From: Betaproteobacteria bacterium
GTDB taxonomy: Bacteria; Pseudomonadota; Gammaproteobacteria; Burkholderiales; SG8-41
DNA length: 62,338 nt
Reading direction: 5' to 3'
Assembly: GCA_016199545.1 (NCBI GenBank)
Contig: JACQGN010000031.1
Span: forward strand, 1-62,338
Each line of letters starts with the position of its first letter. Position 1 is the first letter of the stretch. A program made the position numbers and the translations under genes. Below are positions 15,082 to 55,700 of the stretch, one piece after another. The notes beneath the pieces are model-generated. The model worked only from the letters and a program-made list of their open reading frames with translations, searched no databases and was not told the DNA's origin.

Positions 15082-15403
15082 CGTGCCAACCAGTCTTGAC
15101 CCCTCCAGCGACAACCGGAAGGCGATCTTACTCGGAAACGAAAGGAGCGTAGCGCGCATTCCGTCGTCGAGAATATCGCGCCCCTCCCCACCTCTTGTCG
15201 GCGACAAATGGCGTCGGAAGGAGAGGACAGATACTCGGCTTTCCCGGTTTACTTTCTGACGCAATCGGTCTACTTGACGATCGATTGCGCGGGCGTGCCC
15301 CTGCATGTCGATCGACTTTCAATCGAACGTCCGCGCATGTAACCCGCTGAAACACTGTCTTAAATCAAGAAAAGTCCACTATGTGTAACGAAAATCTACC
15401 GTT

Positions 15404-15432
15404 TTGTTAGATTTTTTGAAGGCTAACATAAT
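15404..15432 (+). promoter_or_regulatory. Candidate promoter in the AT-rich leader of the T1SS locus
   Basis: TTGTTA, a 17-nt spacer, then CATAAT. It lies inside the only strongly AT-rich tract (about 15350-15470) upstream of the ABC gene. Confidence 0.3.
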
Positions 15433-15485
15433 GATTTCATGTGGAAATTAATCCTTGCCAAGACTGGCAGTCGCGCTTATCGTAA

Positions 15486-17711
15486 TTGGCAATAAGCAAT
15501 AAAACACGCTCTGATCTGCGTTGTCGGTGTGGTCCGGGGGAGGCATCTCTGGCACGCGAATTCACGCTGTCGGCGGAGAACTTTATCTGGGGGCTGCAGA
15601 ATATCTGCCAGCTTCACCGGATCCCCTGTGCGCCTGATCTCGTTCTGCAGCAGTTCCCGCCTCCTTACGATCTTTACTCGCTTCAACACGCTGCGCGTTC
15701 ATTGGGGCTCGAAAGCGGCATACGCGATGTACGCCCGGCACGCCTTTCACAACTCGCGGCGCCGTTCATTGCGGTGCTGCGCCCGGAAGCCCCTGACGCC
15801 AGCGATGCGCGCGCCGAGGGCGCGGGGCCGGTCGCGGAAGGCGACACCCACTTTCTGCTCTCCATCGTCGTCAGATGCACTCCGGCCGGGATCACTTGCC
15901 TCGAGCGTGGTTCAGATTCTCCGGTAACGTGCTCTCTTGCCGACTTCGAGCAGCGCTTTGCGGGCAAGGCCTTCCTGTGCGTGCCCGCGGCGCCGGATCT
16001 CAAAGGCGAAGATGCGGCGCTTGCCGACAGCAGCACGTTCGGTTTCCGCTGGTTCGTGCCGGAACTGCTCAAGCACCGGGCGATCTGGCGCGACGTGCTC
16101 CTTGCCTCGCTCGCAATCCAGTTGATGGCACTGGCGACGCCGATATTCACGCAGGTCGTGATCGACAAGGTCATCGTCCACCACACGACCAGCACGCTCA
16201 CCGTCATCGGCGTTGCGCTGGCGGTCTTCATCATCTTCACGGCGAGCCTGAGCTGGGTGCGCCAGTACCTGGTGCTTCACACCGGCAACCGCATCGATGC
16301 GGTGCTCGGTTCGCGGGTATTCGAGCACCTCTTCAAACTCCCGCCGCGCTACTTCGAGGCCCGGCCGACAGGCGTGCTGGTCGCTCGCGTGCACGGCGTC
16401 GAGACCATCCGGGAGTTCCTCTCCAGCGCCGCGGTCACACTGATCCTGGATGTGCCGTTCCTGCTGATCTTCCTGGCCGTCATGTTTTATTACAGCGTGT
16501 CGCTGACGCTTATCACTGTCTCGGTGCTGCTTGCCATTACGGTGCTGAGTCTTGCGATCACGCCGCTCCTGCGGCGTCGCATCAACAGGCAGTTTCTGCT
16601 CGGCGCGCGCAACCAGGCCTTTCTCACGGAGTACGTGTCGGGAATGGAGACGGTGAAGTCGTTGCAGATGGAGCCGCAGTTGAACGCCCGCTACGGCGAT
16701 TATCTGGCGAGCTACCTCCGATCGACTTTCGCGACCCGCCAGCTTGCCAACAGCTACAACGTCGCCGCTCACGCGCTGGAGCAGGTGATGACCCTTGCCA
16801 TCCTCTGCCTGGGCGCTTGGCTGGTGATGACCAGCAAGGAATTCACGGTCGGTATGCTGGTCGCCTTCCAGATGTTCGCCTCGCGGCTCTCGCAGCCCAT
16901 GTTGCACCTCGTCGGCTTGTGGCAGCAGTTCCAGCAGGCCGATATCGCGGTGAAGCGTCTGGGGGACATCATGAATGCGCCGCCGGAACCCTACTCGGTC
17001 ATCCCGGCACGCGAGGCGAGGGAAGACGGCGCAATCGAAGTACGGGAAGCGGGTTTCCGTTACGCGGAGAATCTGCCGTATTTGTTTCGTAACCTCAATT
17101 TCACCATCAAGCCGCACACGTGCACCGCAATCATGGGCCCCTCAGGCAGCGGCAAGAGCACGCTCGCGAAGCTATTCCAAGGGTTCTACCTCGTCACAGA
17201 TGGCGCCATTCATCTCGACGGACTCGATGTCCGCCACCTTTCGGCCAACGAACTGCGGCAACACTTCGGCGTCGTCCCCCAGGAGACGGTCTTGTTCAGC
17301 GGTACGGTGTACGAGAATCTGACCCTCGCGAATCCGCATGCAAGTTTCGAGCGTGTGGTGCAGGCGTGCAAGCTCGCAGAGATCCATGAATTCATCGAGA
17401 AACTCCCCAAGGGTTATCAGACCGAGATCGGCGAGCACGGCGTTGGACTCTCCGGCGGCCAAAAACAGCGGATCGCCATCGCCCGAGCATTGCTGAAACG
17501 GCCGAAGATCTTGATCTTCGACGAGGCAACCAGCAGCCTCGATCAGCCCACCGCCGAGCAGTTCGCGCGAACCGTCAACCGGCTCAAAGGCAAGGTCACG
17601 ATGATTTTCATCGCGCACCAGTTGCCGAAAGGGCTGCAGGTGGACAATGTCTTTCAGCTCGGCGCACCCGGGCGACAGATGGGGGTCGTGGGAGAGGAGA
17701 GGAGGGAATGA
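15486..17711 (+). CDS. Type I secretion system ABC transporter (HlyB family) with N-terminal C39-like domain
   Basis: The N-terminus aligns by eye to the HlyB C39-like domain (FIWGLQNICQLHRIP...AARSLGLESG...FIAVL). It is followed by 6 TM helices, Walker A GPSGSGKST, the signature LSGGQKQRIAIARAL and Walker B ILIFDEATSSLD. The only in-frame canonical start is the TTG at 15486. Confidence 0.9.
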   Translation: MAISNKTRSDLRCRCGPGEASLAREFTLSAENFIWGLQNICQLHRIPCAPDLVLQQFPPPYDLYSLQHAARSLGLESGIRDVRPARLSQLAAPFIAVLRPEAPDASDARAEGAGPVAEGDTHFLLSIVVRCTPAGITCLERGSDSPVTCSLADFEQRFAGKAFLCVPAAPDLKGEDAALADSSTFGFRWFVPELLKHRAIWRDVLLASLAIQLMALATPIFTQVVIDKVIVHHTTSTLTVIGVALAVFIIFTASLSWVRQYLVLHTGNRIDAVLGSRVFEHLFKLPPRYFEARPTGVLVARVHGVETIREFLSSAAVTLILDVPFLLIFLAVMFYYSVSLTLITVSVLLAITVLSLAITPLLRRRINRQFLLGARNQAFLTEYVSGMETVKSLQMEPQLNARYGDYLASYLRSTFATRQLANSYNVAAHALEQVMTLAILCLGAWLVMTSKEFTVGMLVAFQMFASRLSQPMLHLVGLWQQFQQADIAVKRLGDIMNAPPEPYSVIPAREAREDGAIEVREAGFRYAENLPYLFRNLNFTIKPHTCTAIMGPSGSGKSTLAKLFQGFYLVTDGAIHLDGLDVRHLSANELRQHFGVVPQETVLFSGTVYENLTLANPHASFERVVQACKLAEIHEFIEKLPKGYQTEIGEHGVGLSGGQKQRIAIARALLKRPKILIFDEATSSLDQPTAEQFARTVNRLKGKVTMIFIAHQLPKGLQVDNVFQLGAPGRQMGVVGEERRE

Positions 17712-17787
17712 GGAATGCAGTAGGACTACGCTCCGATACTCCGATCAGCCCGCAGGAAGGCTTCACCAATTCGTACTGAGGGAACGC

Positions 17788-30400: not shown

Positions 30401-30519
30401 CGGGGAGCGCGTATTACGATATGCCGCGCGCGGTGGTGGGTTTGCAGGACGTCGCGGGGCACCAGCTCAAGGCATTCCGGGGGCTACGCGAGGGGATGAA
30501 CGTTCTGCCACAAGCGTAA
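21433..30519 (+). CDS. Giant RTX (repeats-in-toxin) calcium-binding T1SS substrate with an N-terminal alpha/beta-hydrolase (lipase-like) head
   Basis: The ATG at 21433 overlaps the upstream TGA (ATGA); an alternative ATG is at 21439. The N-terminal region has FSATLFRKREGGELTLSFRSTE and a nucleophile elbow GYSLG (nt 21916-21930). Dozens of GGxGxDxL nonapeptide repeats alternate with about 8 modules of the type D.I.F..GI...DI...R.G.DLV......G.D.V.V..WF......I..F.FADGT (haemolysin-type Ca-binding related domain). There is an acidic and Gly/Ala-rich tail. Confidence 0.9.
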   Translation: MTMANGQINQLLEFANMQMAAEAFLSRVNDTTPNVPSAAEIRDRLIEGNTHASKFMLVQAEQFTSQYEVLAQYRNDPLLPGGTGFSATLFRKREGGELTLSFRSTEYLDDAVRDNKSTNDLEIKDIGWALGQIAEMEAWYRDLRQTHLAAGDGNVRNFNVTGYSLGAHLATAFNILRREESTETGVPNPILATYTFNGAGTGQKLNGRRLTDLLADFNQIRADYRSSPQWNALSESDRMTIEDGAQFAVNKINAEWAYVAGLSGLQNPAFGGATAPLGMQTSLDYQVAALVVGRDTVGALDSNYPTVGGPIFISSNLLLAPTDQRFSNMVDVVGMETQGLATSFVANSGIHYGNRVQVHIEAQPLYRGNFPLSAIGNSVTHLGIKLLVNNPTDNDFADTHSLVLLVDSLSLMAAMEKLAPTLTIEMAGQLLAAMSNAKADQLLFTQGKAEGDSLERMLDALRRLALGPSLDPTFNRDQMLQLLEGNTWHQSAYRVPFHEKLVDLRERISALTALSETFVFDSLLTRTPAQLSESTANPDALAYRYALRELNPFALLGDTANAAIYSWHNLAGQLDLYSAGNRTGTLTTQWIADRVDFLSHRNKANTTNVSLLPSTQVTEPWRFVDLPLNYKLTIIPPGGTAIEVLTHRAIFDGDSSDALHGGKVSDRLYGAGGADYLEGKADNDYLEGGTGLDVYAYSGAMQLLGGANDGADVIRDIDGKGILRYMYSPLLGSLQTTVIADASSRQSDTEWRSANGKFTYTVRPNEEGRIDLEVTINGDAGGALTLKDFRDGDFGIRLWGDRQAPQAVVRTFYGDKENWDADSSQDGIQPAPDGFGNFLRADGQDGRNDVALPDRSDFFYGAPTAEVERFMLGNNNDGAYSDGTDSATTATGSVDWLQGGPGRDDLVSGAGNDLIEAGADGVYENEVGGDIAYGALGDDEIYGTEKIALAAAINAGDTNIPTSLKGDLLSGGPGEDWLIAGAANDFLLGGSDRDLMIAGAGDDDVFGDGDFIALTPLWTALRTITTDPVTGTNTYSIEINLGELSPIGAGAGGNDVVYAGSGSDWIFAYEGDDFVDGGPGNDVAFGMDGDDVLIGGAGDDLLVGDSGPASAVFGGDYLDGGAGNDRLQGDGGNDVLIGGAGDDTLTGGAGKDIYVFNKGDGKETIFDTPDDPAKADASVLVLGDGFFRSNVRFFPGSLGIDLGPSNPEDLNSPHDVIHFEGFDQINPDATPLLTEIRFGDGTSMSYAEILAQGFDIDGTAGNDNSNPDEPPNLVGTGVTDRIWGFAGNDLLFGLAGDDMLDGGDDADSLVGGAGADTIHGGSGNDVIWADGESGGMVAPDGADVIYAGEGTDLVYGFDGGDQILGEGGNDTLYGEHGADLVDGGTSNDFVYGDALYMVLGTPILNYFDDNANDTLRGGDGNDVLNAGGGDDILEGGADSDRLEAEAGNDALDGGDGADTLWGGAGADTLTGGMGDGDVLSGEAGDDVYIFNLGDGEDRIHEQPDTVLDFLAFGSGITVADISFSRGTGNALVAWHANGTDQVSIPDWYLGAGYRLDRFDFADATQIMAAQAETSALTSFRGGSGDDTLSGNSSADTMYGLAGNDWLSGNAGNDTLIGGTGGDTLIGGDGADTYRVALGDGADLIQETGLVDDTLIFGASVAGTDITYDRVGSNLVMRHANGTDSVTVYNWFEPGFSYVLQSVTFESDGTTLSLSQLSTLATVIPHQYTLDLGDGAKLIEDWGGIDTLTFGAAIAKADIQTSRVGVDLVLTHVNGSDRVTVKGWFDDVAKQIEQVTFSATGETFTHSELTDPFLTLNGTAGNDSIEGGNAYGETIDGLAGNDVIYGFAGEDQITGGLGNDTLNGGAGADRYYFVTGDGADRVNEDNSGGNVIQFGPGLVDKLVSTFPSDGSNLITFTGLTDSVRIFNNFSSTILKFELYGTATANTLTGSDWGDVVQALGGNDSVYGGAGSDEIYGGAGNDTLEGGRDVDYLYGEAGDDVIDGGSRTLIDTDDGFVTYFHGGPGNDTLYGDGGATGDQYFFNLGDGQDLIVDEPYFGNAQWHYSQFDELNFGPGITEGSLSAVPSGSDLIVNVTPTDRVALRNWMSNPMYRVDYFTFSDGTQLDTAGILQLAYTQRGTEGDDTLTGAESQADRLYGNGGDDVLSGLGGNDLLDGGTGNDTLSGGTGDDQLNGGAGADALNGGDGNDTYEFGPGAGQDAIIDSGGVDTVQFSSGVTASNVVLSRNANSLVLTISATADALTITDYFVNPAFRIEDFNFADGSLLPGESSILDQFLNIRGTAGDDVLSGTAGVDILYGLDGNDALTALADNDTLLGGVDNDTLTGGTGNDNLQGEAGDDHYQYELGDGQDVVSDTAGFDTLVFGAGIATTSVSTTRSGSNLMLGVNVTGNTGQVTVQNYFNGQETEEIRFADATVWDAAAVRARVLAASSTSGSDLIIGYESNDTISSLAGHDTVYAGAGDDMVDGGSGSDTLYGEEGNDHLTAGSGDAKNATVNNYLYGGSGDDVLLASAKTDFLYGDAGNDILRGSNGISIMNDSSGNNLLDAQGGSDQLYGGDQNDLMIGGAGLDSFDGDSDLDGLRGRDILAFNKSDGQDLVSRLASGSTISIGGGTLYSNLALEAQNTALRLKTGSNHYISLGDWYLTPANKAVSTLQIVIEGTRDYKTSSSNPMNNLKIQRFDFLGLVAAFDAAGRPSNFNVAANLPGAYIAGSDTEAIGGAIAYQYARSGSLGALTYDQMRAVISAPEFAVSVQPIAFGSAAAAESSAMDSSDPAAGSEVQADAERLTIEGGSATDEQRAFHDGPISRSTRDSPMPEFNSPATGTIAPAAIAGVRGAGFNDAAPQRPAGSSAAAPDASLLADAPGGRAITGTDDRDSVVAHRSDTGGQVKREYGSGSALEALVEQWFNRRSLHEDLSLLDDVWRGEAPVSAPASGSVAAAWEASHRWLAAQAKARNQAGNADADGADLSGLSLLGTGSAYYDMPRAVVGLQDVAGHQLKAFRGLREGMNVLPQA

Positions 30520-30557
30520 GCGAAACGCGTGTGTTGCGTCTCCTGAAGGAGGGCACG

Positions 30558-31913
30558 ATGTTCGATAAGCTGAATGCAAGCGGAGTCTCCACCCTGGACC
30601 TGGAGTTTGCGCCGGCGTTGCTCAGGATGCAGCGTGAGGCGCCCACACCGCTGCCGCGCATCGTGGCCTGCGCGCTGCTTGGCCTCCTGACGGTGACGCT
30701 GGCGTGGGCCGCGATCGGGCAACTCGATGTGGTCGCGGTTGCACAGGGAAAAATCGTGCCGCAAAGCTTTCTCAAGATCGTACAGCCGGCCGAGCAGGGC
30801 ATCGTGCGCGAAATCCTGGTGAAGGATGGCGATCTCGTGGAAGCCGGACAGGTGCTGGTGCGCATGGATACGCGCCTGCAGGATGCGGACCGAAAAGTCG
30901 TGGAGAACGACCTCGAATTGCGGGAGCTGCAGTTGCGCCGCATCGACGCGGAACTTGCGGGCACTCCGCTGAAACAGCACCCAGGGGCCTCGCCCGGCTC
31001 GTTTGCGCAGGTTGAAGCGCAGTACCAGGCCCGCCGCCAGGCGTATCTGGATGCCGTCGGCGCCGAACGCGCGCTCCTCGTGAAGTCGCAGCAGGAGCTG
31101 CAGGTCGCGACGGAAGTGGAAAGCAAGCTCAGGCAAACCGTTCCGATTTACCGCGAGCAGGCACACGGCTGGGATCAGCTCGCCAGGGAAGGGTTCGCGG
31201 GAAAATTGATGGCGCTGGAACGCCAGCGCCTGTACATCGAGAACGAACAGGATCTGCGCGCCCAGGCCTACAACATCGAGAGCCTGAAGGCGAGCGTCGC
31301 GCAATCGGAGCAGCGGCTGGCGCAGATCACCTCGAACTACCGGCAGCAATTGCAGAACGAGCGGGTGGAGGCGGACGCCCACCGGCATCGCCTGCGCCAG
31401 GAACTCGCCAAGCACCAGCACCGCTCGCAGTTGCTCGAGCTGCGTGCCCCACAGGCCGGCGTCGTCAAGGATCTCGCCACGCATACGCCCGGAACCGTGG
31501 TGGCGCCGGGCACGATCCTGCTCACACTGGTGCCCAGGGAAGAACCGCTTGTCGCCGAAGTGTGGGTGCGTAACGCCGACGCCGGTTTCGTGCAGCCGGC
31601 ACAAAAGACCCGAATCAAGCTTGCCGCGTATCCGTTCCAGAAGTACGGCATGCTGGAGGGCAGGGTGCAGCACGTGAGCGCGGATGCGCAGGACAGGGCT
31701 AACGATGCCGGCGAGGCACGGCAGTTTCAGGACGCGGCGTATCGCGCGCTGATCGACCTTGAGGCTGCGTTCCTGGAACACCAGGGCACGCGCCTTGCGC
31801 TGGTTCCGGGCATGCTGGTCAACGCCGAGATCCACCTGGGCACGCGCAGCGTGCTGGAATACCTGCTTTCACCAGTGCAGAAAGTCGCCCATGAGGCGGG
31901 ACGGGAGAGATAG
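30558..31913 (+). CDS. Type I secretion membrane fusion protein (HlyD family)
   Basis: GAAGGAGGG RBS. Single N-terminal TM helix (RIVACALLGLLTVTLAWAAIG). Lipoyl-like motif GKIVPQSFLKIVQPAEQGIVREILVKDGDLVEAGQVLVRMD. Long coiled coil and a C-terminal beta-barrel (GMLVNAEIHLGTRSVLEYLLSP). Confidence 0.9.
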   Translation: MFDKLNASGVSTLDLEFAPALLRMQREAPTPLPRIVACALLGLLTVTLAWAAIGQLDVVAVAQGKIVPQSFLKIVQPAEQGIVREILVKDGDLVEAGQVLVRMDTRLQDADRKVVENDLELRELQLRRIDAELAGTPLKQHPGASPGSFAQVEAQYQARRQAYLDAVGAERALLVKSQQELQVATEVESKLRQTVPIYREQAHGWDQLAREGFAGKLMALERQRLYIENEQDLRAQAYNIESLKASVAQSEQRLAQITSNYRQQLQNERVEADAHRHRLRQELAKHQHRSQLLELRAPQAGVVKDLATHTPGTVVAPGTILLTLVPREEPLVAEVWVRNADAGFVQPAQKTRIKLAAYPFQKYGMLEGRVQHVSADAQDRANDAGEARQFQDAAYRALIDLEAAFLEHQGTRLALVPGMLVNAEIHLGTRSVLEYLLSPVQKVAHEAGRER

Positions 31914-31916
31914 CCT

Positions 31917-32390
31917 GTGACTGCTGCGCCGCGGGTGCGCATCGCGCTCGGCCCCTCGCGCATCCTGGCGGCTGTGTTGAGCCTGGCGCACGCCCTGGCG
32001 TTGGCTGTGATTCTCATCGTCACCATACCCGTCTGGGCGAAGCTTCTGGTGGGATCGGTAATCGCGGCGAGTTGCGCCTGGTCGATCTGCCACGCAGGAC
32101 TGCTACGCACCGCGCACGCAATCATCGAACTGGTAATCGGGGAGGGCGGGCGAGTCTCCTACCGTGACCGCACCGGGACGTGGCAAGAGGTGCGGATACT
32201 CAATTCGAGCTTCGTCGCACCGTGGCTCACAGTGTTGAATCTGCGCGCGGAGGGTTCACGGTTTGCCCGGCAGGTGGTCATTCTGCCGGACAGCGTGGAC
32301 GCGGACTCTTTTCGCCGGCTGAGGGTGCTGCTGCGCTGGGCACGAACGGCGCCGGGTGCGCCGTCGGAGCCTTCTAGTACTCGGGGTTAG
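31917..32390 (+). CDS. Two-TM membrane protein resembling the CptA/YgfX family
   Basis: GTG start 3 nt after the hlyD stop. Two N-terminal TM helices. The C-terminal VVILPDSVDADSFRRLRVLLRW resembles the E. coli YgfX tail WLAADSMDEAEWRDLRRILL. The family call rests on remembered motifs only. Confidence 0.45.
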   Translation: MTAAPRVRIALGPSRILAAVLSLAHALALAVILIVTIPVWAKLLVGSVIAASCAWSICHAGLLRTAHAIIELVIGEGGRVSYRDRTGTWQEVRILNSSFVAPWLTVLNLRAEGSRFARQVVILPDSVDADSFRRLRVLLRWARTAPGAPSEPSSTRG

Positions 32391-32840: not shown

Positions 32841-33659
32841 CTAGGTTTGAACCTCACTTCCCCGCCGAAGGCGCTCTCGGAGCCCCTCTAGCGATGCCTC
32901 CCTAGCATCCACAGGCCTAACCCGCCGAATCACCCTCAGCGGCCGAACAGGCAGCCCGAATTTCTGGCTGGCACGCGCATCGATCTCAAACATTGCGTCG
33001 TAAAAGAACTTACTCTCGCCAAGAAAACCCCCAAGAACTGCCCCAACACGTTTACCCACTTTGTCTTTTAGAACAGGCACTCTAGCCCCAGCACGCTTAC
33101 CGATGATTCCCCGGTTATGCACGATCGCATTCCTTAACTCCACTAGAACCACTGCCTTCTCCTCATCGTGTCGCACCGAGAACAGCTGAAATCCCATCTC
33201 CTTGAACAAGTATTCCGACAGCTCCCTAAAGCCAAGATAGGACAACCTCTCGACCCGTTTCTCCGCTAGAGCCCTTCTCAGTTCATCCATCGTTTGAAAC
33301 TGCAACACGAACTCAACACGCTCTTGCTCAGATGAGCGCAACATTTCAGGCTTCGCGCCGTAAACCAGCGCCAGCAACTCTGTCACGTATGTCAGAACAT
33401 TGTCCACCACACGACATACAAGCATTTCATTCACCAACTCGTTATGCGAATCCATTTCCCCCACTAGATACCCATCTGCCGCCTGAACCTTGCCATTCTT
33501 CGAGCGTGCCCCCATGTCGGTGAAAAGCACAATCTGCGACTCCACGACGAAAACATAGAACTCAAGCAGCCTCATCTGTTCCGCGAAGAAACGCTCGCCG
33601 GCCTCAGTAACGAGCGGCTCTACCGCGCGGCCCGACCCGCTAACCTTTGCCTCACCCAT
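32841..33659 (-). CDS. HEPN-motif protein (MAE_28990/RiboL-PSP-like HEPN candidate)
   Basis: Mostly helical-looking 272-aa protein. It has a canonical Rx4H motif, ELRNAIVHNRG (R176...H181, nt 33117-33134). It lies in the low-GC segment (28/60 GC in the line starting at 33001). Confidence 0.55.
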   Translation of the reverse strand: MGEAKVSGSGRAVEPLVTEAGERFFAEQMRLLEFYVFVVESQIVLFTDMGARSKNGKVQAADGYLVGEMDSHNELVNEMLVCRVVDNVLTYVTELLALVYGAKPEMLRSSEQERVEFVLQFQTMDELRRALAEKRVERLSYLGFRELSEYLFKEMGFQLFSVRHDEEKAVVLVELRNAIVHNRGIIGKRAGARVPVLKDKVGKRVGAVLGGFLGESKFFYDAMFEIDARASQKFGLPVRPLRVIRRVRPVDAREASLEGLRERLRRGSEVQT

Positions 33660-33668
33660 TTCTTAACC

Positions 33669-33860
33669 TTATGGCCTCAAGAAAAGTTCCACCAAAGAAG
33701 GCACAACACTCTCAATTCGCTCCCCAGCCTCAAAAAGTAATTGATCCGCCACCCACTGCACAACAACGAAGCCGACAGCCCTAAATAAGCCGTCCAGTTC
33801 TTCGTTGTCGTACTTCGTGCCTCCGGGACTGATCGCATAGTCTCTACCGTTCGCACCCAC
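33669..33860 (-). CDS. Possible small ORF between the AbiC-like and HEPN genes
   Basis: Protein-like 63-aa translation (YDNEELDGLFRAVGFVVVQWVADQLLFEAGERIESVVPSLVELF), but with a GTG start and no RBS. It is in the same frame as the HEPN gene, separated by TAA GGT TAA GAA. Confidence 0.25.
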   Translation of the reverse strand: MGANGRDYAISPGGTKYDNEELDGLFRAVGFVVVQWVADQLLFEAGERIESVVPSLVELFLRP

Positions 33861-33894
33861 CGGCGCGCGCCCGCGTTGACTGCGCCGTTAAGGC

Positions 33895-34722
33895 TCATTT
33901 CGCCTTTGCCTTAGCCCTTTCCGCCTCTCGCGCCTGAACACGAGCCCGGACCTCTGCGATCGCTTCGCCAAACATGATTCCCGGAAACAATTTTTCTGTG
34001 GCCTCAAACCCTTTCAGTTTCAGCAAATCGCGTCCAGGCTCCGTGATTAAAAGGTGAGTTGCGAGCAACTTTGCCGTCCCAGAGTAGTGTCGAATAATTG
34101 GTATGCTCAAAAGTGCATCGGGCGCGAAGTAAACGCGCTGAATTGAGGAGCCAGCCGCTGGAAGAACTACGGAATCAGTTGCACCTTCATACATTTCCAC
34201 CGCCGACACAAAGCGGTTCAGAAATTCTTCGCATCCACTATCGATTGGCAGCCATTTCGTATGCGCCTCAAAGACCGCATTTGGGTCGCTACCCTCCGTA
34301 ATGGTATTCCATAATTTCATCCCGTTCATGTATGCAGTAGGCAGATCGGTGATAGAGCGCACGCCCTGAACCGAGCCCCGAGAGAGCGATGCATCGTATT
34401 GATCCAGTATTCGCGCCACCTGTTCTAGGGCAGCGTACTTTCCTATCTTCTTCCATTCATTCCGTTGCTGCTCCATCGATTGCCGCTGCATCGCCAATTC
34501 CTGGCGCTGTAGCCTCAGCTCTTGACCTTGCATAAAGTACGCCGCGACCAGCCAAATAAAAGCGAGCGTGCCGGCGAATCCGGAAAAGAAATCACCTATT
34601 TGACTTAGTGTTTCAAGCTTTGGCGCGATGACCAGCGCGACAATGCCGGCCAATATCACTATGGCGGTGAGTGCCCAAGGCCACCATCTTTCCATCGTCG
34701 CGCGATTCATGAGCCCTAACAC
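33895..34722 (-). CDS. Two-TM protein with AbiC-like (putative abortive infection) N-terminal module
   Basis: The segment TM1, GDFFSGFAGTLAFIWLVAAYFMQGQELRLQRQEL (nt 34495-34599) matches the remembered putAbiC pattern: GD(F/Y)xGG...TM helix...Q..EL...Q. It is followed by a soluble domain and a Lys/Ala-rich tail. Confidence 0.5.
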   Translation of the reverse strand: MLGLMNRATMERWWPWALTAIVILAGIVALVIAPKLETLSQIGDFFSGFAGTLAFIWLVAAYFMQGQELRLQRQELAMQRQSMEQQRNEWKKIGKYAALEQVARILDQYDASLSRGSVQGVRSITDLPTAYMNGMKLWNTITEGSDPNAVFEAHTKWLPIDSGCEEFLNRFVSAVEMYEGATDSVVLPAAGSSIQRVYFAPDALLSIPIIRHYSGTAKLLATHLLITEPGRDLLKLKGFEATEKLFPGIMFGEAIAEVRARVQAREAERAKAKAK

Positions 34723-34770
34723 TCACGCCCACTGGCACGCATTACAAAGCGCAGCCATCCCAGTCGCCCA

Positions 34771-35619
34771 TCAAAACCATCCGATCGCATAGGGCAGCTG
34801 CTCTAGCAACATCTGTCGCCCCGGCTCAGTTCCCCATTGCCAGCAAAGTCGAGACTGCATTTCGATCTTCATATCCTCAAAAAGGCGATGGTTCGGAATA
34901 GCCGGAAACAAATGCCGTGCGGCAATAAACGACGCTTCGTCCAGCGAGTCGAAATAAGTTGGCTGCTCCCGCGGATCATCAAAGCTCCTGATGACCTCCC
35001 CAATTACCGTAAGGGCTGCGACTACATGCACACAGTCCATGATAGAAAACTCATAGCTTTCCATAGAAAGGTGTGCGGCCGATCGATCCGCATACTGCTT
35101 CAGCAGCCCGATCCGGCGGCCGAGTGGAGCCGCAGCACTCAACAGCGCCTTATCTGTTTTTGCGCAATCCCGGAAAATCGACCTAAGTAGGTGAAGCGCG
35201 GCAAGCGCTTCTTCACACCTTCGGCTCGAACGCGTCGACCAGTACTCCGCAACTCTTTCTAACATCTCATCCGAGTTCTTCGCGAAGTTTGCACCGGTTA
35301 GGCCATTGGCGCCGTGGTCGAAGGCCTTTCTGCACGAAAGAGCAACCGTACTGCTCGCAGAGAACTCGATCGCGTGCTTCAGGACCACGCCGGGATACCC
35401 TTCCACCGCGCAAGCTTGATCACGATGCGCATTTGCTCCATGAAACAGATAGAACGCCGGCAACGCAAGCGTAGCCCGCGACTTGACTCCACGAAGGAAG
35501 TGAATTGCCCGTCCCAATGGATCCAACTGCATCGGCGCGCACCGCGGCTTTAATCGTTCCGTGCGCTCTGCCAATGCGCGCTCTGCGCTCTTATCCACTG
35601 AAAAACTTATCTTTGCCAT
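34771..35619 (-). CDS. Hypothetical protein (282 aa), first gene of the low-GC operon
   Basis: Protein-like, helix-rich sequence. No family was recognised. The ATG at 35619 (MAKISFSVDK) is preferred over the track start at 35664. Confidence 0.6.
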   Translation of the reverse strand: MAKISFSVDKSAERALAERTERLKPRCAPMQLDPLGRAIHFLRGVKSRATLALPAFYLFHGANAHRDQACAVEGYPGVVLKHAIEFSASSTVALSCRKAFDHGANGLTGANFAKNSDEMLERVAEYWSTRSSRRCEEALAALHLLRSIFRDCAKTDKALLSAAAPLGRRIGLLKQYADRSAAHLSMESYEFSIMDCVHVVAALTVIGEVIRSFDDPREQPTYFDSLDEASFIAARHLFPAIPNHRLFEDMKIEMQSRLCWQWGTEPGRQMLLEQLPYAIGWF

Positions 35620-36415
35620 GTCCGTATGATAACGACCGCAGAAACCCGCAGACAAAACTACCACCTACCGGCCACACGTCCAGCATACTACGCTGAACAC
35701 CCGCAGGTAATCGAGAAAATCACCGACCAGGAAATCAAGAACACGCCCGGAGACCGCTCGCCAGCCCGCCCGCCGCTGCGCGGCGTGCCGGGCACCCCTC
35801 GGCGCGCCGGCGCCGGGCGCAAACCCGTAATCAAGAAACGAGAAGGACGCGGAGGCCGAAGCCTGCGACGAACGCGAGGCCGATGAAGCCGACCCCGTAG
35901 CAGATCACGCCCACGACCTCGAGGACCCGAACGCTCACAGATCACCCCGCAGCACCATCTGGCGCGCATTCCACCAGCGCCGGTCCGCATCGAACTGCAA
36001 AAGCGGCCGTAACCTGGGCGCCGGTTTCCCCGAACGCTTACGCGGTTCACAGGGCAACCACGGAACAACGCGCACCTGCGGGACGTACGGGCATTCATCT
36101 GACGCCCGCGGCCGCTGTGAGAGGTTGAATGGGCGACCGCCAGATCTCCATTATGTCGGTGCTGATTAGAGAAAGCAGTTACAGCATGGTGAAAGCTGTC
36201 GGGCTGCATGCTCGTTTGCGGCCGCCGCTCGATCGGTGTAAAGTCTCTCGAAGGAAACGAAGGGGGGGAAGCCTTTGGATCGCTATTTCCATTTCTGAAG
36301 CGTTGTATTGCCCCAGTAGTGCGATTGCTTTCAGGCGCCCTGTTCGATCCATGGTACGTATTCGCAACGTTGGCCAATCCACCATAAATCTGCGCTCACG
36401 AGAATCGACCGATAC

Positions 36416-36697: not shown

Positions 36698-36730
36698 GAG
36701 TTTGTCGGACTTAGGCTCGACAAACTCCTA
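36695..36730. terminator. Bidirectional hairpin between convergent genes
   Basis: Perfect 13-bp stem TAGGAGTTTGTCG / CGACAAACTCCTA with a 10-nt loop. The two arms contain the stop codons of the + and - strand genes respectively. Confidence 0.6.
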
Positions 36731-37375
36731 GTCCTTCGCGCCGGCCCTCACCAGGATTTCAGAGACTTCCTTCATCCCGCGCTCGCGCGCGACTTCCAGC
36801 GCCGTATAGCCGAGCGGAGTGCGGTAGTTGACGTCCGCACCATGCTCCATGAGCAGCAGCACCATGGGCAGATGTCCCTCGCGCGCGGCCATCATCAGTG
36901 CCGTCGTGCCATTTTCGGCTGCTGCATCCACCTTGGCGCCACGACTGATCAGCTTCCGAGCTATATCCAGATGGCTGTTCGCCGCTGCATACATGAGCGG
37001 TGTCCAGCCGGACGGGTTCACATCGGACCCGTGCGCGAGCAACATCTCGACGATCTCCGTGTGCCCGCGCAACGCGGCCAGCATCAGAGCCGTCTCACCA
37101 TAGGCGTTCCGTGCGTCCACTCGCGGCTTGGCCACAAGCAGGGTCCTGACGATATTCGGTTTTCCCTCCTTGACGGCAAGCATCAGAAGGGACTCGCCTT
37201 CACGCGTCACGCTGTTGACCTCAAATCCGCGGTTAAGCAGCGAAGCGACCGTGCGGGTGTCGTCCAGGTCGATGGCCCGGATCATGTCGTCGTAAGCGTC
37301 GGCGCGCGCCCCTCCAGCAACGAAAGTGAGCGCGCTGAAGAGCAGAATAATCCTAATGTGTCGTATGATGAACAT
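36728..37375 (-). CDS. Secreted ankyrin-repeat protein
   Basis: Signal peptide MFIIRHIRIILLFSALTFVAGGARA. About 5 ANK repeats (G.TALM.AA..GH...V..LL..GA.VN). Confidence 0.85.
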   Translation of the reverse strand: MFIIRHIRIILLFSALTFVAGGARADAYDDMIRAIDLDDTRTVASLLNRGFEVNSVTREGESLLMLAVKEGKPNIVRTLLVAKPRVDARNAYGETALMLAALRGHTEIVEMLLAHGSDVNPSGWTPLMYAAANSHLDIARKLISRGAKVDAAAENGTTALMMAAREGHLPMVLLLMEHGADVNYRTPLGYTALEVARERGMKEVSEILVRAGAKD

Positions 37376-49604: not shown

Positions 49605-51227
49605 TCAGAAGCGGTAAAAAGCCGAGAAGTGCAGCTTGACGTGCCCTTGCGGCGTGCCGTCTGAGACGCCGTCGAGCACATTGGCGAGCGCCGCGCTCAC
49701 CTCGAGCTTGCGCTGCCAGTTCCACTTGAGGCCCACGCCGACGCTCGAGGCATTATCCGACGTGCTGGTGCCGACCACCGGCGTTACGTGCTTGCGGCTG
49801 CCGAAATCGAAGAACACGAATGGCGTCACGCCTGCGTAGATCTCCGGCGTTTGCAGTTCCGCGATGAAGTTGTGGCCCCGGTCGCCCGTCACTTCACGGT
49901 CGCGCAGGCCGCGCACCGAACCGGTGCCGCCGATGCCGAACTGTTCGCCGGGAATCAACGCCTCGTCCGCGTACTGTCCACGGAAGCGCCCCGAAAGATT
50001 CCATCCTCCACTGAACGAATAGCTTGCATCGATGCCATAGCGCCAGGCGTTCCAGTTCGGGTCCGCGCCGACGCGCGCAGTACTGTATGCGAGATCGTCG
50101 TCCGCGCGTGCGCCGCGAAGATTGTGCACGTACTCGACATAGCCACCAATGCCCCCCGCGGCCTGTTCGTGGCGAGCCGTGTAGCGCAGCGACAGCGGGC
50201 GGCTGCCCACGACCGTGGTCTGTATCGCGGCACCTTGGGAACCCAAATCGCTCTTGAAATAGCGGTCGTCGAGCGCGAGAGATACGTTCTGGCTGATCAG
50301 GCCGAACTTCGGGAGCGCGTAGGTGCCGCGCAAACCCCAGAATTCGCCGCGCCCGCTCACGTCGAAGTTCTGCCCGCCCACGCCAACCGTACCGGTATCC
50401 ACGTCCGAAAATGTCCAGTAGGCGTTCAACGTCGTGTGGTAACCGTAGAGCGGCAGCCAGTAAAACGCTCCGATCTGCGTCACGTCATCGAGGTGATCCG
50501 GCGATGTCGTATACGCCACGGTCGCCGCGTGGTCACGGTCAAACAGATTGCTCTGCTGATGCCCGATCGTGAGCCGCGTGTAGCCGGTGTTGCGATTGAT
50601 CGTATTGTCGTGGTCGCGCGTGTCCCCGTTGAGCCCGATGAAGGTCTGCATCGCCGGCACGTCGCGCACCCTGACTTCGGCATCGAGATGGTCACGCTTC
50701 TGGCTTTCCTTGATCTGGATCGACAGGCGCTTTGCCGGGTGCTCGTTGACGAGGGCCAGTTGCCGCGACAGTTCCCGCACGTCGGGCGATTGCCCCGCCT
50801 GCAATTCCGGCAACGCGCGAAGAATATTCTCGTTCGAAAAATGCTGATTGCCCGAGACCGTCAACTGCGCGATATTGAAACGCAGCACACGCAGCCTGAG
50901 TTCGCCCGCCGCGGGCCGCTGCGCCGGGACGATGACGCGGTGAAACGAATAGCCCTGCTCGCGCATCGCGTCCTCGAGTGCGCGCGCGGCCGCCTCGATG
51001 GTGTCCAGGCTCTTGTGCGTGCCCAGGTGCCGGGCGAGGATGGCATCCGTTTCCTGCTGCGACAACGGGTTGGCGTCTCCCTCGACCACGAAGCGCTTGA
51101 TCTCGAGCAGCACACCGCCCGGTGCTTGCGAGGGCTGGCTGAATACGGTCGTGGTGGCAAACGCCAGCACTGCCCCCGCGACCACTGCGCAGGTGTGGCG
51201 CATTATCCGATTTCCGCGCGCTGTCAT
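49605..51227 (-). CDS. Two-partner secretion outer-membrane transporter (TpsB; ShlB/FhaC/HecB family)
   Basis: Signal peptide. POTRA-like region (IKRFVVEGDANPLSQQE..., RLRVLRFNIAQLTVSGNQHFS). C-terminal beta-barrel ending FSAFYRF. The ATG at 51227 overlaps the FecR-gene stop (ATGA); an alternative ATG is at 51203. Confidence 0.85.
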   Translation of the reverse strand: MTARGNRIMRHTCAVVAGAVLAFATTTVFSQPSQAPGGVLLEIKRFVVEGDANPLSQQETDAILARHLGTHKSLDTIEAAARALEDAMREQGYSFHRVIVPAQRPAAGELRLRVLRFNIAQLTVSGNQHFSNENILRALPELQAGQSPDVRELSRQLALVNEHPAKRLSIQIKESQKRDHLDAEVRVRDVPAMQTFIGLNGDTRDHDNTINRNTGYTRLTIGHQQSNLFDRDHAATVAYTTSPDHLDDVTQIGAFYWLPLYGYHTTLNAYWTFSDVDTGTVGVGGQNFDVSGRGEFWGLRGTYALPKFGLISQNVSLALDDRYFKSDLGSQGAAIQTTVVGSRPLSLRYTARHEQAAGGIGGYVEYVHNLRGARADDDLAYSTARVGADPNWNAWRYGIDASYSFSGGWNLSGRFRGQYADEALIPGEQFGIGGTGSVRGLRDREVTGDRGHNFIAELQTPEIYAGVTPFVFFDFGSRKHVTPVVGTSTSDNASSVGVGLKWNWQRKLEVSAALANVLDGVSDGTPQGHVKLHFSAFYRF

Positions 51228-52648
51228 TGAACCTCGCAGATTAAATCACCGGCACTACCGCCCGGGTTGAGGACTTCGAGCAGGCGAATGGTCTGTTCAT
51301 CAAACCGATCCGGCAACGGATACGGATCATTCAGGAGGAACGGAGGCTGGTCGGCCAGCCGGACCGGCGTATCCTGACCGTCCGCCAGGTAACCGGACTC
51401 ACCCGGGCCCAGATCGATGGATCCGGCGCGGCCGAAGAACTCTATGTGCCCGTCGCGCACGATGGCGTAAAGTCCCGTCGGGAAACCATCGAGGCGGAAT
51501 ACGCCAAAGAGGTTTTCGAAATCCACGGGAACGGCATCGGGACGCGGCGCCGGCTCGTCGATCATGAACTGCGGCCGCTGCTCAACGAGGGTGAGCCTGT
51601 CGAATTTCGGGTTGAATACACCGGTCTGGCCCAACGGTATGAGCAGCGACCGGCCGCCGGCCTCCAATGCGACCGCCCCCTCCCAAGTGTGAACGAAGGC
51701 GCTCTGGGCGCACTGGCTGGGCGCCACGCAATCCAGCCCGAACATCGCGTCTACGCCGGTCCCGCGCACGCCGACGACCGCTGTGAGCATGTTGACCCGA
51801 ACGTTTTCCGGCTGGCTCTTCGCCAGCAGTCCTGTCAGCGCGCGCGCGCCCCCACGCACGACGCGCACCACGAAATTTCCGCTGTCCGCCTTTGCCCCGG
51901 TGAATTTCACGTTCTCCAGCTTGAATTCTGACTCCGCGGTAACTGTGACCTTGGTCTGGTCGCGAAAGGCGATGATGGCGTGGCTGCCCTTTCCGGTGCG
52001 CACCGACTCGCCGTTCACCAGCGGCGTGCCCTTGGCCGCGGGGCGAGTCTGCCCGTTCGCCGCAACCACTGTCACGGTTCCCAAGGCTACGGCGACACGC
52101 GCGACGACCAGGTCCGACGGGAGGCCCTCCTTCTTGCGGCCGGCCTTTAATTCCTCCGCGCAGTCGCCTTCGCACGCACGCACGTCGAACGAAGTGCCGC
52201 GTATGCCCATCGTAGCGGCGCGCGCGGTCAGTTGCATCCCTTGCGGATTGCGCTTGCTGATGAGACCGGTGAACGCGCGAATTCCGCCTTTCACCAATCG
52301 AAACAGCGCCGACTCTTCGCCCGCTCCGTGGCTGAACCTGTCGACCGCGAACGTGGTGTTGGGACGCAGCGTGATCTTGGTGCCGTCCTTGAGGGAAACG
52401 ACCGCGAAGCCCCGATTGCTGGTGCTGATCACGTCGCGCGGGTTCAGCGGGTCACCCTTCTGCACGAAGCGAGGATCTTCCCCGGCGCGTTGCACGCTGG
52501 TGAGCCCGTGCGCGTAGCTAATCTCCCCCACCGGTTGCGCGAGGGCTGACACCGAGCAGCACGCCGCAGCGAGCGCAAATATCAGAGCCGTCAGCGTGCG
52601 TCGTTGCGTTCTCCCCGACAACCACTGTGGCTTGAAACTTAGCGGCAT
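51224..52648 (-). CDS. Secreted protein with two FecR-like domains
   Basis: Signal peptide MPLSFKPQWLSGRTQRRTLTALIFALAAACCSVSALAQP. Two FecR-type segments (VQRAGEDPRFVQKGDPLNPRDVISTSNRGFAVVSLKDGTKITLRPNTTF and NGQTRPAAKGTPLVNGESVRTGKGSHAIIAFRDQTKVTVTAESEF), each followed by a GIRGT/GVRGT motif. Confidence 0.7.
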   Translation of the reverse strand: MPLSFKPQWLSGRTQRRTLTALIFALAAACCSVSALAQPVGEISYAHGLTSVQRAGEDPRFVQKGDPLNPRDVISTSNRGFAVVSLKDGTKITLRPNTTFAVDRFSHGAGEESALFRLVKGGIRAFTGLISKRNPQGMQLTARAATMGIRGTSFDVRACEGDCAEELKAGRKKEGLPSDLVVARVAVALGTVTVVAANGQTRPAAKGTPLVNGESVRTGKGSHAIIAFRDQTKVTVTAESEFKLENVKFTGAKADSGNFVVRVVRGGARALTGLLAKSQPENVRVNMLTAVVGVRGTGVDAMFGLDCVAPSQCAQSAFVHTWEGAVALEAGGRSLLIPLGQTGVFNPKFDRLTLVEQRPQFMIDEPAPRPDAVPVDFENLFGVFRLDGFPTGLYAIVRDGHIEFFGRAGSIDLGPGESGYLADGQDTPVRLADQPPFLLNDPYPLPDRFDEQTIRLLEVLNPGGSAGDLICEVQ

Positions 52649-52799
52649 TTTGGCGCTCTTATTGGCGCGGTTGCTTTGTTTTCGGGCGCCGCGACTCGCT
52701 GCGTCCCCCTGATACTGCAATGGCAACACGCGCAAGTGTAATGCTAAGCAAATAAAAAGGCATCTACCCCGCAAATCGGAGCGACGCACTCGGGGCGGT

Positions 52800-55700
52800 T
52801 CACGTGCATATCGGCACCCCGGGTTGCGACGTGCTTTTGGCATCCGCGGTTTCAGGCTCAGCCTCAAGCCGCGTGTCGTCCTGGTCCTCCTCTAGCGCCA
52901 GCAGCGACTGTATCGTGTCGTTTGCCGCGTCGGTGGCAAGGGCAGCGTTCGTAACGGTCGCTGTCGAAATTGGGAGCGGGCCAGTGGGCAGGGCGGGGCC
53001 GATGACGACACCTCCTGATGCCAGCGCCCCAGCCGTCGGAGAAGACCCCACGACAGGCAGTATGCAACTTCCCCCGCAGGCGAGGAACAGAGTCCCGCTT
53101 CCGCCAGGCCCAACCGTAATGAGGGCGTCCGCGCCAGGCGCCGTGCCCGGCGTGAGAATGACATCACCTGTGGAGCCAAGTATCGAGACGGGGCCGCCAT
53201 TGGTGATGAAAGCCGCGGCGCCGCTCGCGCCGCCGCCGCTGAGGGTAAAGTCGCCATTGGTTGTGTAAATCGTCTGCGCGCTCCCTGATACGATCTGCGC
53301 GACGGCGTTTACGCCGCCTCCGCCCTGAACGTTGAGCGCGCCATTGGAAAGAATCGTTTGTGTCAGAGGATCGATCTGCGCGAGCGAATTGTCGCCGCTG
53401 CCGCCGAGCACAGAAATACCTCCAAGAAGCGTGCTGACGGTCTGTGTGCCGGTTGCAGGAGTGCCCGCCTTGAGTTCTGAAACCGAATTCACGAGGCCGC
53501 TTTGAATCGTGATCGAACGAGCGAAGATGTTTTGATCGGCTGCTTTTACGCGGGATGTGCCGGAAACGTTCACGTCACCGATCATGAGGTTACCACCCGT
53601 ACCACCCTGCATCTGCTCTGGATAATCGAGTTCCAGCAGTTGGCTCGTGCCTGCCGTCACGCTTGCCGTGCCGGTGCCCAGCGCTGCAACCCGCATACTG
53701 TTGCCGCTACTGCTCGAAGTGCCGCTGGTAGTGTGAATCCACTGGTTGCCCGCTGCGGAAAGCGTCGCGTTGCCGGCAGAGCCCGCCGCCGTTTGCACAT
53801 CCACGAATCGCGCGCGGATCAACTGGTCGCCGCCAGCCATGACGCCGGTCACCGAATTCAGGTTGGTGCTGAGCGTGTTAATGGAAATGCCGCCATTGTT
53901 CGCGATGATGGTCTGTTTCGCTGGTGTCGTCACCGCGACGGTTCCGAGCCCGGAGTTGGTGAGCGATAACGAGGCATTGATGACCTGGTCGGTGGCTGGA
54001 GTATTCTGGATCAGCACGAACGCATCGGCGAGAGCGGGTCCTGTGCCAGTGGGAGGAAGCGGGTCCGACTGCATCGTGATGCCGCTGCTCGCATTGACGG
54101 TTTGCGTCCCCGTTCCCTGGTTGAGGATGCCGGCTGTCGAGAGGGTGTGTCCTCCACTCATCGTGATGTTGTTTACGCTCACAAACTGGTTGCCGGCGAG
54201 GTTACGGATGACGGAATCGGAAGTGCTGCCGCTGATACCGGAGCCGCCGTTAAGTGTAATCGCGCCAGCGAATATGCTCTGATTCTGCCCTTCGACAATC
54301 GCGCTAGCATTGGCTATCGGGGCAACGTCTGTTCCATTGGCGGTCATTGAGAGTGAACTGAAGCTCAAACTCTGGTCTGCCGGGGTATTGATCCGGACCA
54401 ACGAGCCCCCCCCTGTGCCCGCCGCCATTATCGTGACACCGAGGCTCAGGTCCTGCCGGCCGAGCGTTGTAATTTCCACGAGTGAATTGGGACCAGCGCC
54501 TCCGGTCAGCGTAACGCTGCTGGCGGTAATCCTCTGGGCATTTCGATCTGTCCGCGAATCGGACGATGAGATGCGCGCGACAGCGGTGTTGCCGCCGGCC
54601 GTGCCGCCTCCCGTAAGGTCCATAGTGCCGAGGGCGAGCGTTTGTGAATCGAAGTTCGCCAACCCGGTTCCGCTGTAAAGGATCTCGGCGTTCGAGCTCA
54701 TCCCCTGGCCGGCGGTTAGTGTCGTGTTGCCGAACTGAATAGTCTGGAGCGATCCCCCGCTGCTGATCCTTGCGTAACCGCCATCATCGGCATGGCCGGT
54801 GAGCGTCAGGTTCGAGCTGCCGCGCATGCGCTGGGTTCCGGGTGTGACGATTTCGGCAAATGCGCCGCCGGCACCCGCAGTGAGCGTCAACGTATTCAAT
54901 GTGGTGGCGCAAGATTCGCCCGAGCCGCTCGCGCCGCAGCCTATGCGCTGCTCATTGGTCGCGCTGTTGGTCTCGATGCTCGCCTTGCCGCCTGCTCCCG
55001 AACCTCCGAGCACTTGAGCGCTTTGGTCGGCCTGGATTCTCTGCTCGCCGGATGCCGTAATTGCCGCCTGCGCTCCCGTTCCGCCCTGCAGCACGATGTT
55101 GTTTGTCTGATAGGGCTGAGGCGTGCAAGAAAAACCGAAACATCTACTCTCGCCGACCTGCTGCTCGAGCCCGCTCGTGCTGGCAATCTTCGCTTCCGCG
55201 GCGTCGGCCGTCAACTTGATGTCGCGATTGGCGCGGACGAGCTGGCTGCCGGTTGCCGTGCTGATGGTCGCTGCGGCGCCCGCGGCCATGCCGGCCGTGA
55301 GGATGACATCGCCACCCTGGACATTCTGTGTTCCCGTGCCCGTATAGACGATGCTCACCGCGGCATCCGTTCCTCCGCCGCCGAGCAGCCTAATGGAGCT
55401 GGTCGTGTTATCTGGGGTTTGGACGAGTTGACTGCCCGACGCCGAAACCGTTACGGACTGGCCCGCCGTGCCGCCGCCCTGCAGCGTGACCGCGGAAGTT
55501 GAACCATCGCCCCTTATGGTCTGATTTACACCGCTGACGGCAATCGAGCCGCCCGTCGCAGAGAAGGTGAGATTGCCGTTTGGTGTAATGGATTGGCTGC
55601 TGCCGGTGATATTGATCGCTCCGCCCTGGGACGTGATGTCAATATTTCCAAAACTGTCGATGCTCTGATTGCCTCCACTTGATAATGTCCCCGTGCCGGT

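Follow-up and report, generated by a model that had tools for sequence, protein, structure and literature searches.

The 62,338 nt contig JACQGN010000031.1 (assembly GCA_016199545.1, Betaproteobacteria bacterium), the whole of which is referred to here as the window, carries between positions 15486 and 32390 a chromosomal type I secretion system (T1SS) operon, with genes for an HlyB-like ABC exporter, a giant RTX substrate and an HlyD membrane-fusion protein (MFP), TolC presumably being encoded elsewhere. Between the exporter and the giant lie two further genes, p934 and p282. Their products are members of an uncurated partner family of proteins that are exported and predicted to face the periplasm, and it is the hydrolase head at the N-terminus of the giant, not the secretion apparatus, that this family follows. 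The interpretation favoured here, the chances of which we regard as evenly balanced, is that the giant is a T1SS-exported lipase effector, p282 its cognate periplasmic immunity protein and p934 an optional, fused paralogue, because the partners are exported, diverge at least as fast as the heads, form arrays and outlive loss of the head, all of which are hallmarks of effector-immunity modules.

The region is filled by six co-oriented open reading frames (ORFs) on the + strand, in the order ABC, p934, p282, RTX giant, HlyD and a CptA/YgfX-family ORF, and the distance from the ABC stop to the HlyD start is about 12.8 kb; the coordinates and the gap given by an initial annotation of the window are confirmed. 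The genes and the repeats within p934 are as follows:

15486-17711, + strand: HlyB-like T1SS ABC permease/ATPase, 741 aa (PF00664, 160 bits; PF00005, 117 bits)
17788-20451, + strand: p934, with a Sec-type signal peptide, two domain copies of ~345 aa and a Cys-containing C-terminal domain (aa 801-934)
17902-18933, + strand: p934 repeat 1, a predicted PelC-like alpha/beta N-sub-domain plus an HCBP_related-like C-sub-domain (coordinates from hidden Markov model (HMM) matches)
19003-20040, + strand: p934 repeat 2 (coordinates likewise from HMM matches)
20588-21436, + strand: p282, a helical-hairpin membrane anchor plus a ~220-aa domain, predicted to face the periplasm, with homology to the N-sub-domain of the p934 repeats
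21433-30519, + strand: giant RTX cargo of 3028 aa if read from the ATG at 21433 (an alternative start, MANGQ, lies at 21439), matching PF00353 and PF06594
30558-31913, + strand: HlyD-family T1SS membrane-fusion protein (TIGR01843, 318.3 bits; cut-off 208.65)
31917-32390, + strand: p157, a CptA/YgfX-family small inner-membrane protein (PF07254, 62.5 bits; cut-off 27.3), as the initial annotation had proposed

Through p282, 27 loci were fetched, and in 25 of them the sequence 3' of the gene can be evaluated. In 18 of these 25, the p282-type gene is followed directly by a homologue of the head, which starts within a few tens of bases, and in the window the stop codon of p282 overlaps the start of the giant gene (ATGA). 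An ABC gene is present upstream in five loci (L009, L014, L020, L025 and L026), and the order ABC, p934-type gene, p282-type gene, head recurs in L004 and L005, while L007 comprises only the 3' end of an ABC gene followed by a p934-type gene. Among loci fetched through the head, Variovorax sp. PBS-H4 has an ABC-HlyD pair followed by a partner, a head cut at the first RTX repeat, a second partner and a 2608-aa head-RTX giant, and Pseudomonas indica has a partner followed by a truncated head. Tandem pairs or arrays are found in L008, L016, L017 and L032; three paralogues stand upstream of a head relic in L017, and pairs alternate in L032 and L033. Linkage of the domain to T1SS or hydrolase genes, which the initial annotation had put forward for survey, is borne out with respect to the head but is looser with respect to secretion genes, as p282-type genes are also found, away from any T1SS, beside rpoBC/ABC-F or TctC genes, and distant single-copy p934-type genes sit in non-T1SS contexts.

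Partners and heads have also diverged together. Identity matrices for 16 partner-head pairs are correlated with r = 0.90, a value reached by none of 2000 Mantel permutations, and two Variovorax heads that are 57% identical are accompanied by partners only 35% identical. Intact partners with a truncated head behind them are seen in L003 (53 aa), L004 (a 186-aa ORF), L008, L017 and L029, as well as in Variovorax (P0303) and P. indica (P0391) (L033, L034). Head-only proteins were considered as a sign of independence from T1SS and rejected as such, since P0303 and P0391 are truncated relics. Orphan partner genes are found in seven loci, intact in six of them (L001, L011, L013, L015, L021 and L023) and frameshifted in L027, and scars of a lost locus are visible as the head relic in L003 and as a relic of the HlyD C-terminus beside the orphan in L001.

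The operon itself is a mosaic, in which three segments stand out:

20588-23592, + strand: compositionally foreign cassette, consisting of p282 and the head-coding part of the giant gene, defined by G+C content at third codon positions (GC3)
23261-24460, + strand: hypervariable stretch of the giant gene, spanning the end of the neck and the first RTX blocks, with 60-81% nt identity to relatives and indels
17719-20560, + strand: strain-variable segment carrying p934, missing from six related contigs (L038-L043)

GC3 is 0.51 in p282 and 0.57-0.63 in the head, as against 0.78 in the ABC gene, 0.73-0.76 in p934 (which is host-like), 0.70-0.76 in the RTX body and 0.80 in HlyD; as the gap is confined to p282 and the head, the cassette appears foreign to its own operon. 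The close relatives used for comparison were six metagenomic contigs (L038-L043) of ~90-99% nt identity. Most 300-nt intervals within 20861-22960, in the p282-head segment, are ~99% identical to these relatives and one is 96% identical, making this the segment of highest nucleotide identity, and the ABC gene shows 88-98%. The hypervariable stretch is flanked by sequence mostly 93-99% identical to the same relatives and may be a junction left by recombination or, alternatively, a surface region that is diversifying.

Alignment of the window to L038-L043 by blastn ends at 17718 and restarts at 20561, and in each of the six the ABC stop codon is followed at once by the start of p282. The segment absent from them is flanked by a ~31-bp duplication of the ABC 3' end (17688-17718 and 20561-20591). 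Contig names of JGI assembly Ga0209343 are borne both by L039, which lacks p934, and by L044 (95.6% nt identity), which carries it. Because p934 is present in some close relatives and absent from others, it is dispensable and no core part of the secretion machine. In two related contigs (L039, 922-1450; L042, 1706-2234) a DUF2281-PemK toxin-antitoxin pair lies between a homologue of the ORF o235 and the ABC gene, and the corresponding part of the window (~15120-15301) is without it.

The two partner proteins would reach the periplasm by different routes, as the initial annotation had recognised in assigning a Sec signal to one and two transmembrane (TM) helices to the other. The p934 ORF opens at 17647, its probable start being M48 at 17788, preceded by GAGGGA, and both p934 and its homologues begin with Sec-type signal peptides; p282 has a hairpin at aa ~13-57, the connecting loop of which carries four positive charges. 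Among distant single-copy relatives, P0129 and P0150 have Sec signal peptides and P0133 a lipoprotein signal, while a 175-aa protein of L006, assigned to the family on a motif found by eye only, has one N-in TM helix. These four independent export modes (Sec, lipoprotein, single TM and hairpin) would all put the domain in the periplasm.

Three copies of one unrecognised domain had been reported initially, and both parts of that description need qualification. The two p934 repeats are full copies, 48% identical over 345 aa (E 2e-109), whereas p282, which is 25-26% identical to each of them (E 5e-6 and 2e-5), aligns only to repeat positions 39-244 in a comparison of 12 repeat units with 45 p282 homologues by hhalign (probability 96.9%, E 2e-10); the count is thus two full copies plus a single N-terminal sub-domain. 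All three motifs originally listed for the domain are present in each copy, and no further copy was found in the window. Six cysteines are invariant in each p934 repeat and two in p282. The N-terminal sub-domain has no match in Pfam or NCBIfam. By contrast, the C-terminal third of the repeat is, by profile and model comparison, an HCBP_related-like module of the kind found in RTX proteins, this cargo included, such that the domain is not wholly unrecognised. Residues 743-782 of p934, in the C-sub-domain of repeat 2, marginally pass the PF06594 threshold (22.3 against 21.4 bits), the C-sub-domain aligns in register with all six HCBP_related modules of the window giant (sequence E 6.6e-9), and in an exhaustive HMMER search positions 260-338 of the repeat profile match many giants of up to 7080 aa, as many as 28 times per protein. 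A model of repeat 1 resembles the solved CyaA RTX block V domain in Foldseek (E 6e-4, 85 columns, rmsd 2.4).

For the repeat unit, on which the initial annotation had suggested profile searches and structure prediction, modelling offers a putative PelC-like fold for the N-sub-domain. AlphaFold2 (AF2) models are confident, with pLDDT values of 85.5 for p282, a predicted mixed alpha/beta protein with 9 strands, and 84.6 for repeat 1, and in both models the shared N-sub-domain has weak matches to PelC/CsgG/LptE-class folds among PDB structures (E 0.01-0.03, TM 0.4-0.5; repeat 1 against PelC in Foldseek, E 0.03). Assigning a function from these matches was rejected, as they are too weak.

At least 394 p282-type proteins were found; the repeat profile has 1725 matches, among which are proteins matching in the HCBP part only. 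The p934 family is rare, with 8 matches in a word-indexed search, and searching metagenomes with the repeat profile recovered 3 loci, one of them (L045) the same contig as L004. In L005 (756-3434) a p934 relative, P0008, has N-terminal ankyrin repeats fused to the p934-type domain and is encoded upstream of a p282-type gene and head. The single-copy member P0150 lies in a run of exported and lipoprotein genes (L050, 6342-11561) beside a stand-alone Peptidase_C39 fragment, a layout reminiscent of poly-immunity islands.

The giant consists of a head (aa ~1-420), a conserved neck (aa ~420-650), a body of RTX and HCBP_related modules and a C-terminal region, with 26 RTX stretches (PF00353, 439 bits) and 6 HCBP_related stretches (PF06594, 168 bits). 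Its N-terminus, MTMANGQINQLLEF, is not a signal peptide, heads in general lack one, and the extreme N-terminus is strongly conserved. The earlier description of the cargo as an RTX hydrolase is in keeping with the repeats and with a GYSLG motif in the head, the serine of which (Ser164) is invariant among 10 aligned heads, as are many other residues; the candidate catalytic acid is E361 or D398 and the candidate histidine H351 or H400. Lipase_3 (PF01764) matches all 10 heads, in every case under the gathering score (best E 1.9e-4; window head E 0.15), and neither the single sequence nor a 10-sequence profile of the head finds a solved lipase in the PDB. The head is accordingly best described as a lipase-like, putative alpha/beta hydrolase of the class-3-lipase type. 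Membership of lipase family I.3, which the initial annotation had entertained, was rejected, since the matches found to such lipases fall in the RTX part only: PDB lipases 2Z8X and 2ZJ7 align just to aa 656-694 (E 0.3), and NF050046 (PueAB) likewise matches only RTX parts of the giant.

Homologues of the head number 268, mostly from Betaproteobacteria, and many are RTX proteins of ~1000 aa. All heads seen are GxSxG hydrolase-like and N-terminal, including the divergent ones of L004 and L006. In these two loci (L006, 3670-6263; L004, 5658-8146) the giants have shorter, different GHSLG lipase-type heads on a neck common with the window giant, and are preceded by TM-anchored proteins (the 175-aa protein of L006 and one of 221 aa in L004) in which a p282-like C-x-[DE]-x-G-x-x-[IV]-Y motif was seen by eye, HMM searches being negative.

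If p282 is an immunity protein, its anchor would hold it in the inner membrane and its domain would project into the periplasm, binding and blocking any head molecules that arrive. Such molecules might be ones that sibling cells have secreted, or the producer's own if the N-terminus, exported last, becomes exposed. Together, p282 and the head would travel as one cassette that recombines into resident RTX/T1SS scaffolds, an exchange that would leave behind displaced head relics and orphan partner genes. On the same scheme p934 would be a strain-variable fusion of two paralogous units, each with an extra HCBP_related-like module, and its role is most likely additional or non-cognate protection. 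Of the two alternatives originally raised, immunity and secretion accessory, the former is thus favoured by the 18 of 25 pairings, the start/stop overlap, the correlated divergence, the arrays, the orphans and the foreign cassette, with the amendments that the head is not of family I.3 and that p282 is only a partial repeat.

Several points weigh against this interpretation. It is built on comparative genomics, such that toxicity of the head, its arrival in the periplasm and its binding by p282 are putative. T1SS substrates normally bypass the periplasm, and we know of no route by which a 3000-aa RTX protein could be imported into it. Only lipase-like heads were seen, with none of the diversity of toxin activities of classical polymorphic toxins, and no solved Tli or other immunity protein is among the 50 best Foldseek matches of either AF2 model. 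Contact with the RTX body, as hinted at by the HCBP_related-like module of p934, would not be needed for immunity, and in Massilia (L035) a head-RTX protein has no recognisable partner upstream. Furthermore, adjacency and co-divergence are equally expected of any specific binding partner.

The main rival explanation, which we consider unlikely, shares much of the same evidence; in it p282 (and p934) would be head-specific periplasmic docking, retention or maturation partners and the giant a surface-tethered enzyme or adhesin. With export proceeding C-terminus first, the head would come last and lodge on the periplasmic side in the manner of the LapA retention module, there to be held, folded or regulated by anchored p282. 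One-to-one pairing and translational coupling suit such a role as they do any specific association, the predicted topology of both p282 and p934 is periplasmic, the extreme N-terminus of the head is strongly conserved, and the homology of the p934 C-sub-domain to HCBP_related modules of the cargo, with its resemblance to CyaA block V, suggests contact with RTX sequence, the p934 module being what keeps this rival in contention. A retention or maturation partner would not be expected to persist intact where its head is truncated or gone, to be dispensed with, in the case of p934, by near-identical strains, or to stand in arrays of three paralogues before a single head or head relic. Unlike LapA-type retained adhesins, the giant does not match retention_LapA (NF033682) and no LapG/LapD-like protein was found among the ORFs scanned. 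The Lif/LipH/LipB foldases resemble what is proposed here in being periplasmic proteins anchored in the inner membrane, specific for a lipase whose gene adjoins their own. Lif is all-helical, is encoded downstream of lipases secreted by Sec and the type II secretion system, and is essential for their activity; by contrast, the AF2 fold of p282 is alpha/beta, the head has no signal peptide, orphan partners and arrays exist, and neither p282 nor p934 matches the Lif families of Pfam or NCBIfam.

That p934 and p282 share an operon with the ABC and MFP genes and lie between the two, together with the gene order repeated in L004 and L005, could instead mean that this T1SS has in them new accessory subunits, structural or regulatory, as in the accessory or chaperone alternative of the initial annotation. 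This is highly improbable given that the six p934-less contigs have the ABC gene abutting p282, that both p282-type and single-copy p934-type genes occur away from any T1SS, and that the Variovorax pairs are downstream of ABC-HlyD, not between them. It is also improbable, if less so, that the head is a host- or environment-directed lipase, serving nutrition or acting against eukaryotes, and that p282-type proteins are hitch-hiking envelope proteins or general protectants against lipid damage. Characterised RTX lipases are mostly exoenzymes, the Massilia protein is partnerless, and PelC/LptE-like folds are typical of envelope lipoproteins, all of which would fit; tight coupling, co-divergence with faster change in the partner, tandem pairs and retained orphans would be unexpected of a hitch-hiker.

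Among the known systems close in organisation to the arrangement favoured here, of lipase effector and immunity protein, are the Tle/Tli effector-immunity pairs that belong to type VI secretion (T6SS), reportedly described by Russell and colleagues in 2013. In both cases a GxSxG lipase-like effector is encoded beside a periplasm-facing partner, and tandem paralogous and orphan partner genes are found. The window head, by contrast with the Tle lipases, matches no solved lipase by sequence, and delivery here would be via T1SS within a 3000-aa RTX protein; no VgrG, Hcp or PAAR was found among the scanned window ORFs or the Pfam-annotated genes of the fetched encoding contigs, a scan that did not extend to L008-L032. 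Family I.3 RTX lipases and RTX bacteriocins are T1SS substrates that likewise have an enzyme or toxin at the N-terminus and RTX repeats at the C-terminus and are exported through an ABC protein, an MFP and an outer-membrane factor. From the former the window head differs in having no detectable sequence homology and the giant in being much larger, and I.3 lipases are not known to have a periplasmic partner family dedicated to them. The HCBP_related-like third of the p934 repeats, for its part, departs from its counterparts in PF06594 and CyaA block V in following a non-RTX alpha/beta domain in a Sec-dependent protein and not an RTX beta-roll.

Contact-dependent inhibition (CDI) and Rhs polymorphic toxins are described, in the relevant parts of Zhang et al. 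2012 (PMC3482391), as a conserved delivery scaffold with a swappable cassette of effector and immunity protein. The present loci resemble them in that truncated, displaced effector fragments keep their immunity genes and in that the cassette is compositionally foreign; signs of cassette exchange (the GC3 anomaly), displaced head fragments and orphan partners were all found. They differ in that polarity is mirrored, with the effector N-terminal and the partner gene upstream, and in that the heads are all lipase-like whereas CDI/Rhs toxins are C-terminal and of diverse activity. In the passages of PMC3482391 that deal with RTX proteins, N-terminal toxins and lipases, there is no description of an N-terminal lipase that is linked to T1SS and has an immunity gene beside it.

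A more general and more tentative proposition, possible but somewhat doubtful, is that giant T1SS RTX proteins can be interbacterial lipase weapons obeying a mirrored polymorphic-toxin logic, in which the head is N-terminal, as the T1SS secretion signal is C-terminal, the immunity gene is upstream, and cassettes recombine at the junction of neck and RTX repeats with head relics and immunity genes, orphaned or fused as p934 would be, left behind; on this view a new family of periplasmic anti-lipase immunity proteins would start with the p282/p934 domain, and a T1SS substrate would reach the periplasm of neighbouring cells. What is known of antagonism through T1SS concerns small bacteriocins and a few RTX bacteriocins that are poorly understood, and periplasmic immunity to lipase effectors is known from T6SS and the type IV secretion system. 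Literature searches returned no description of a T1SS RTX lipase with immunity genes or with a periplasmic partner family. Were the effector-immunity interpretation right, giant RTX proteins would come within effector-immunity biology, a protein family of some size, as yet uncurated, would gain a role, and the means by which a T1SS substrate meets the periplasm would require explanation. There would also be a genomic marker, a p282-type gene directly 5' of an RTX gene starting MANNQ...LQMAAEAF, with which such systems can be found in Burkholderiales, Rhodocyclales and their relatives. Should the proteins prove instead to be retention or maturation partners, they would still constitute a new class of substrate-specific periplasmic T1SS partner.

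The ABC protein falls best into TIGR01846 (HlyB-type; 600.8 bits), without reaching its strict cut-off of 725, its N-terminal extension has no C39 Pfam match, and it is 94.6% identical to relatives across aa 4-741. The likely start of HlyD is the ATG at 30558, behind GGAGG, and the CptA/YgfX-family ORF begins 3 nt past the hlyD stop; its neighbours are HlyD upstream and an unannotated ORF downstream, with no SdhE (CptB)-like gene adjoining it. Transcription may start from the following sites:

15404-15483, + strand: two sigma-70-like promoter matches 5' of the ABC gene, from a consensus scan only

No convincing terminator-like site was found between the operon genes in a sequence scan, which fits a single operon. 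In agreement with the initial annotation, TolC, HlyC-type acyltransferase and LapG/LapD have no match among the window ORFs scanned, which did not include every small ORF, and p934, p282 and p157 have no HlyC-type acyltransferase match in Pfam or NCBIfam. As tolC is commonly unlinked to T1SS genes, its absence is compatible with a working T1SS. Both flanks are ordinary chromosome, with CoA-transferase and response regulator genes upstream and tatD, holB, tmk and a fab cluster downstream.

Further features of the window lie outside the operon. Directly downstream of it, on the - strand (32841-35664), is an island of low GC3 (0.56-0.61) with three ORFs of 272, 275 and 297 aa, which may be another horizontally acquired module; none has a significant Pfam or NCBIfam match, the 275-aa ORF having only a sub-threshold one to DUF6611, and they are similar neither to p282 nor to one another. 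An exported ankyrin-repeat protein of 215 aa with a signal peptide is encoded at 36728-37375 (- strand). A two-partner-secretion-like locus occupies 49605-61865 (- strand), with a ShlB/TpsB-type transporter and a Gly/Thr/Ala/Ser-rich, TpsA-like protein of 3021 aa (TIGR01901, 71 bits; no Pfam match), between which lies a 547-aa FecR-domain protein whose score against the LapA retention module NF033682 (49.2 bits) is just under the cut-off of 50. At the other end of the window, positions 1122-2615 encode a 497-aa protein in which a MerR-type helix-turn-helix is fused to an adenylate/guanylate cyclase catalytic domain.

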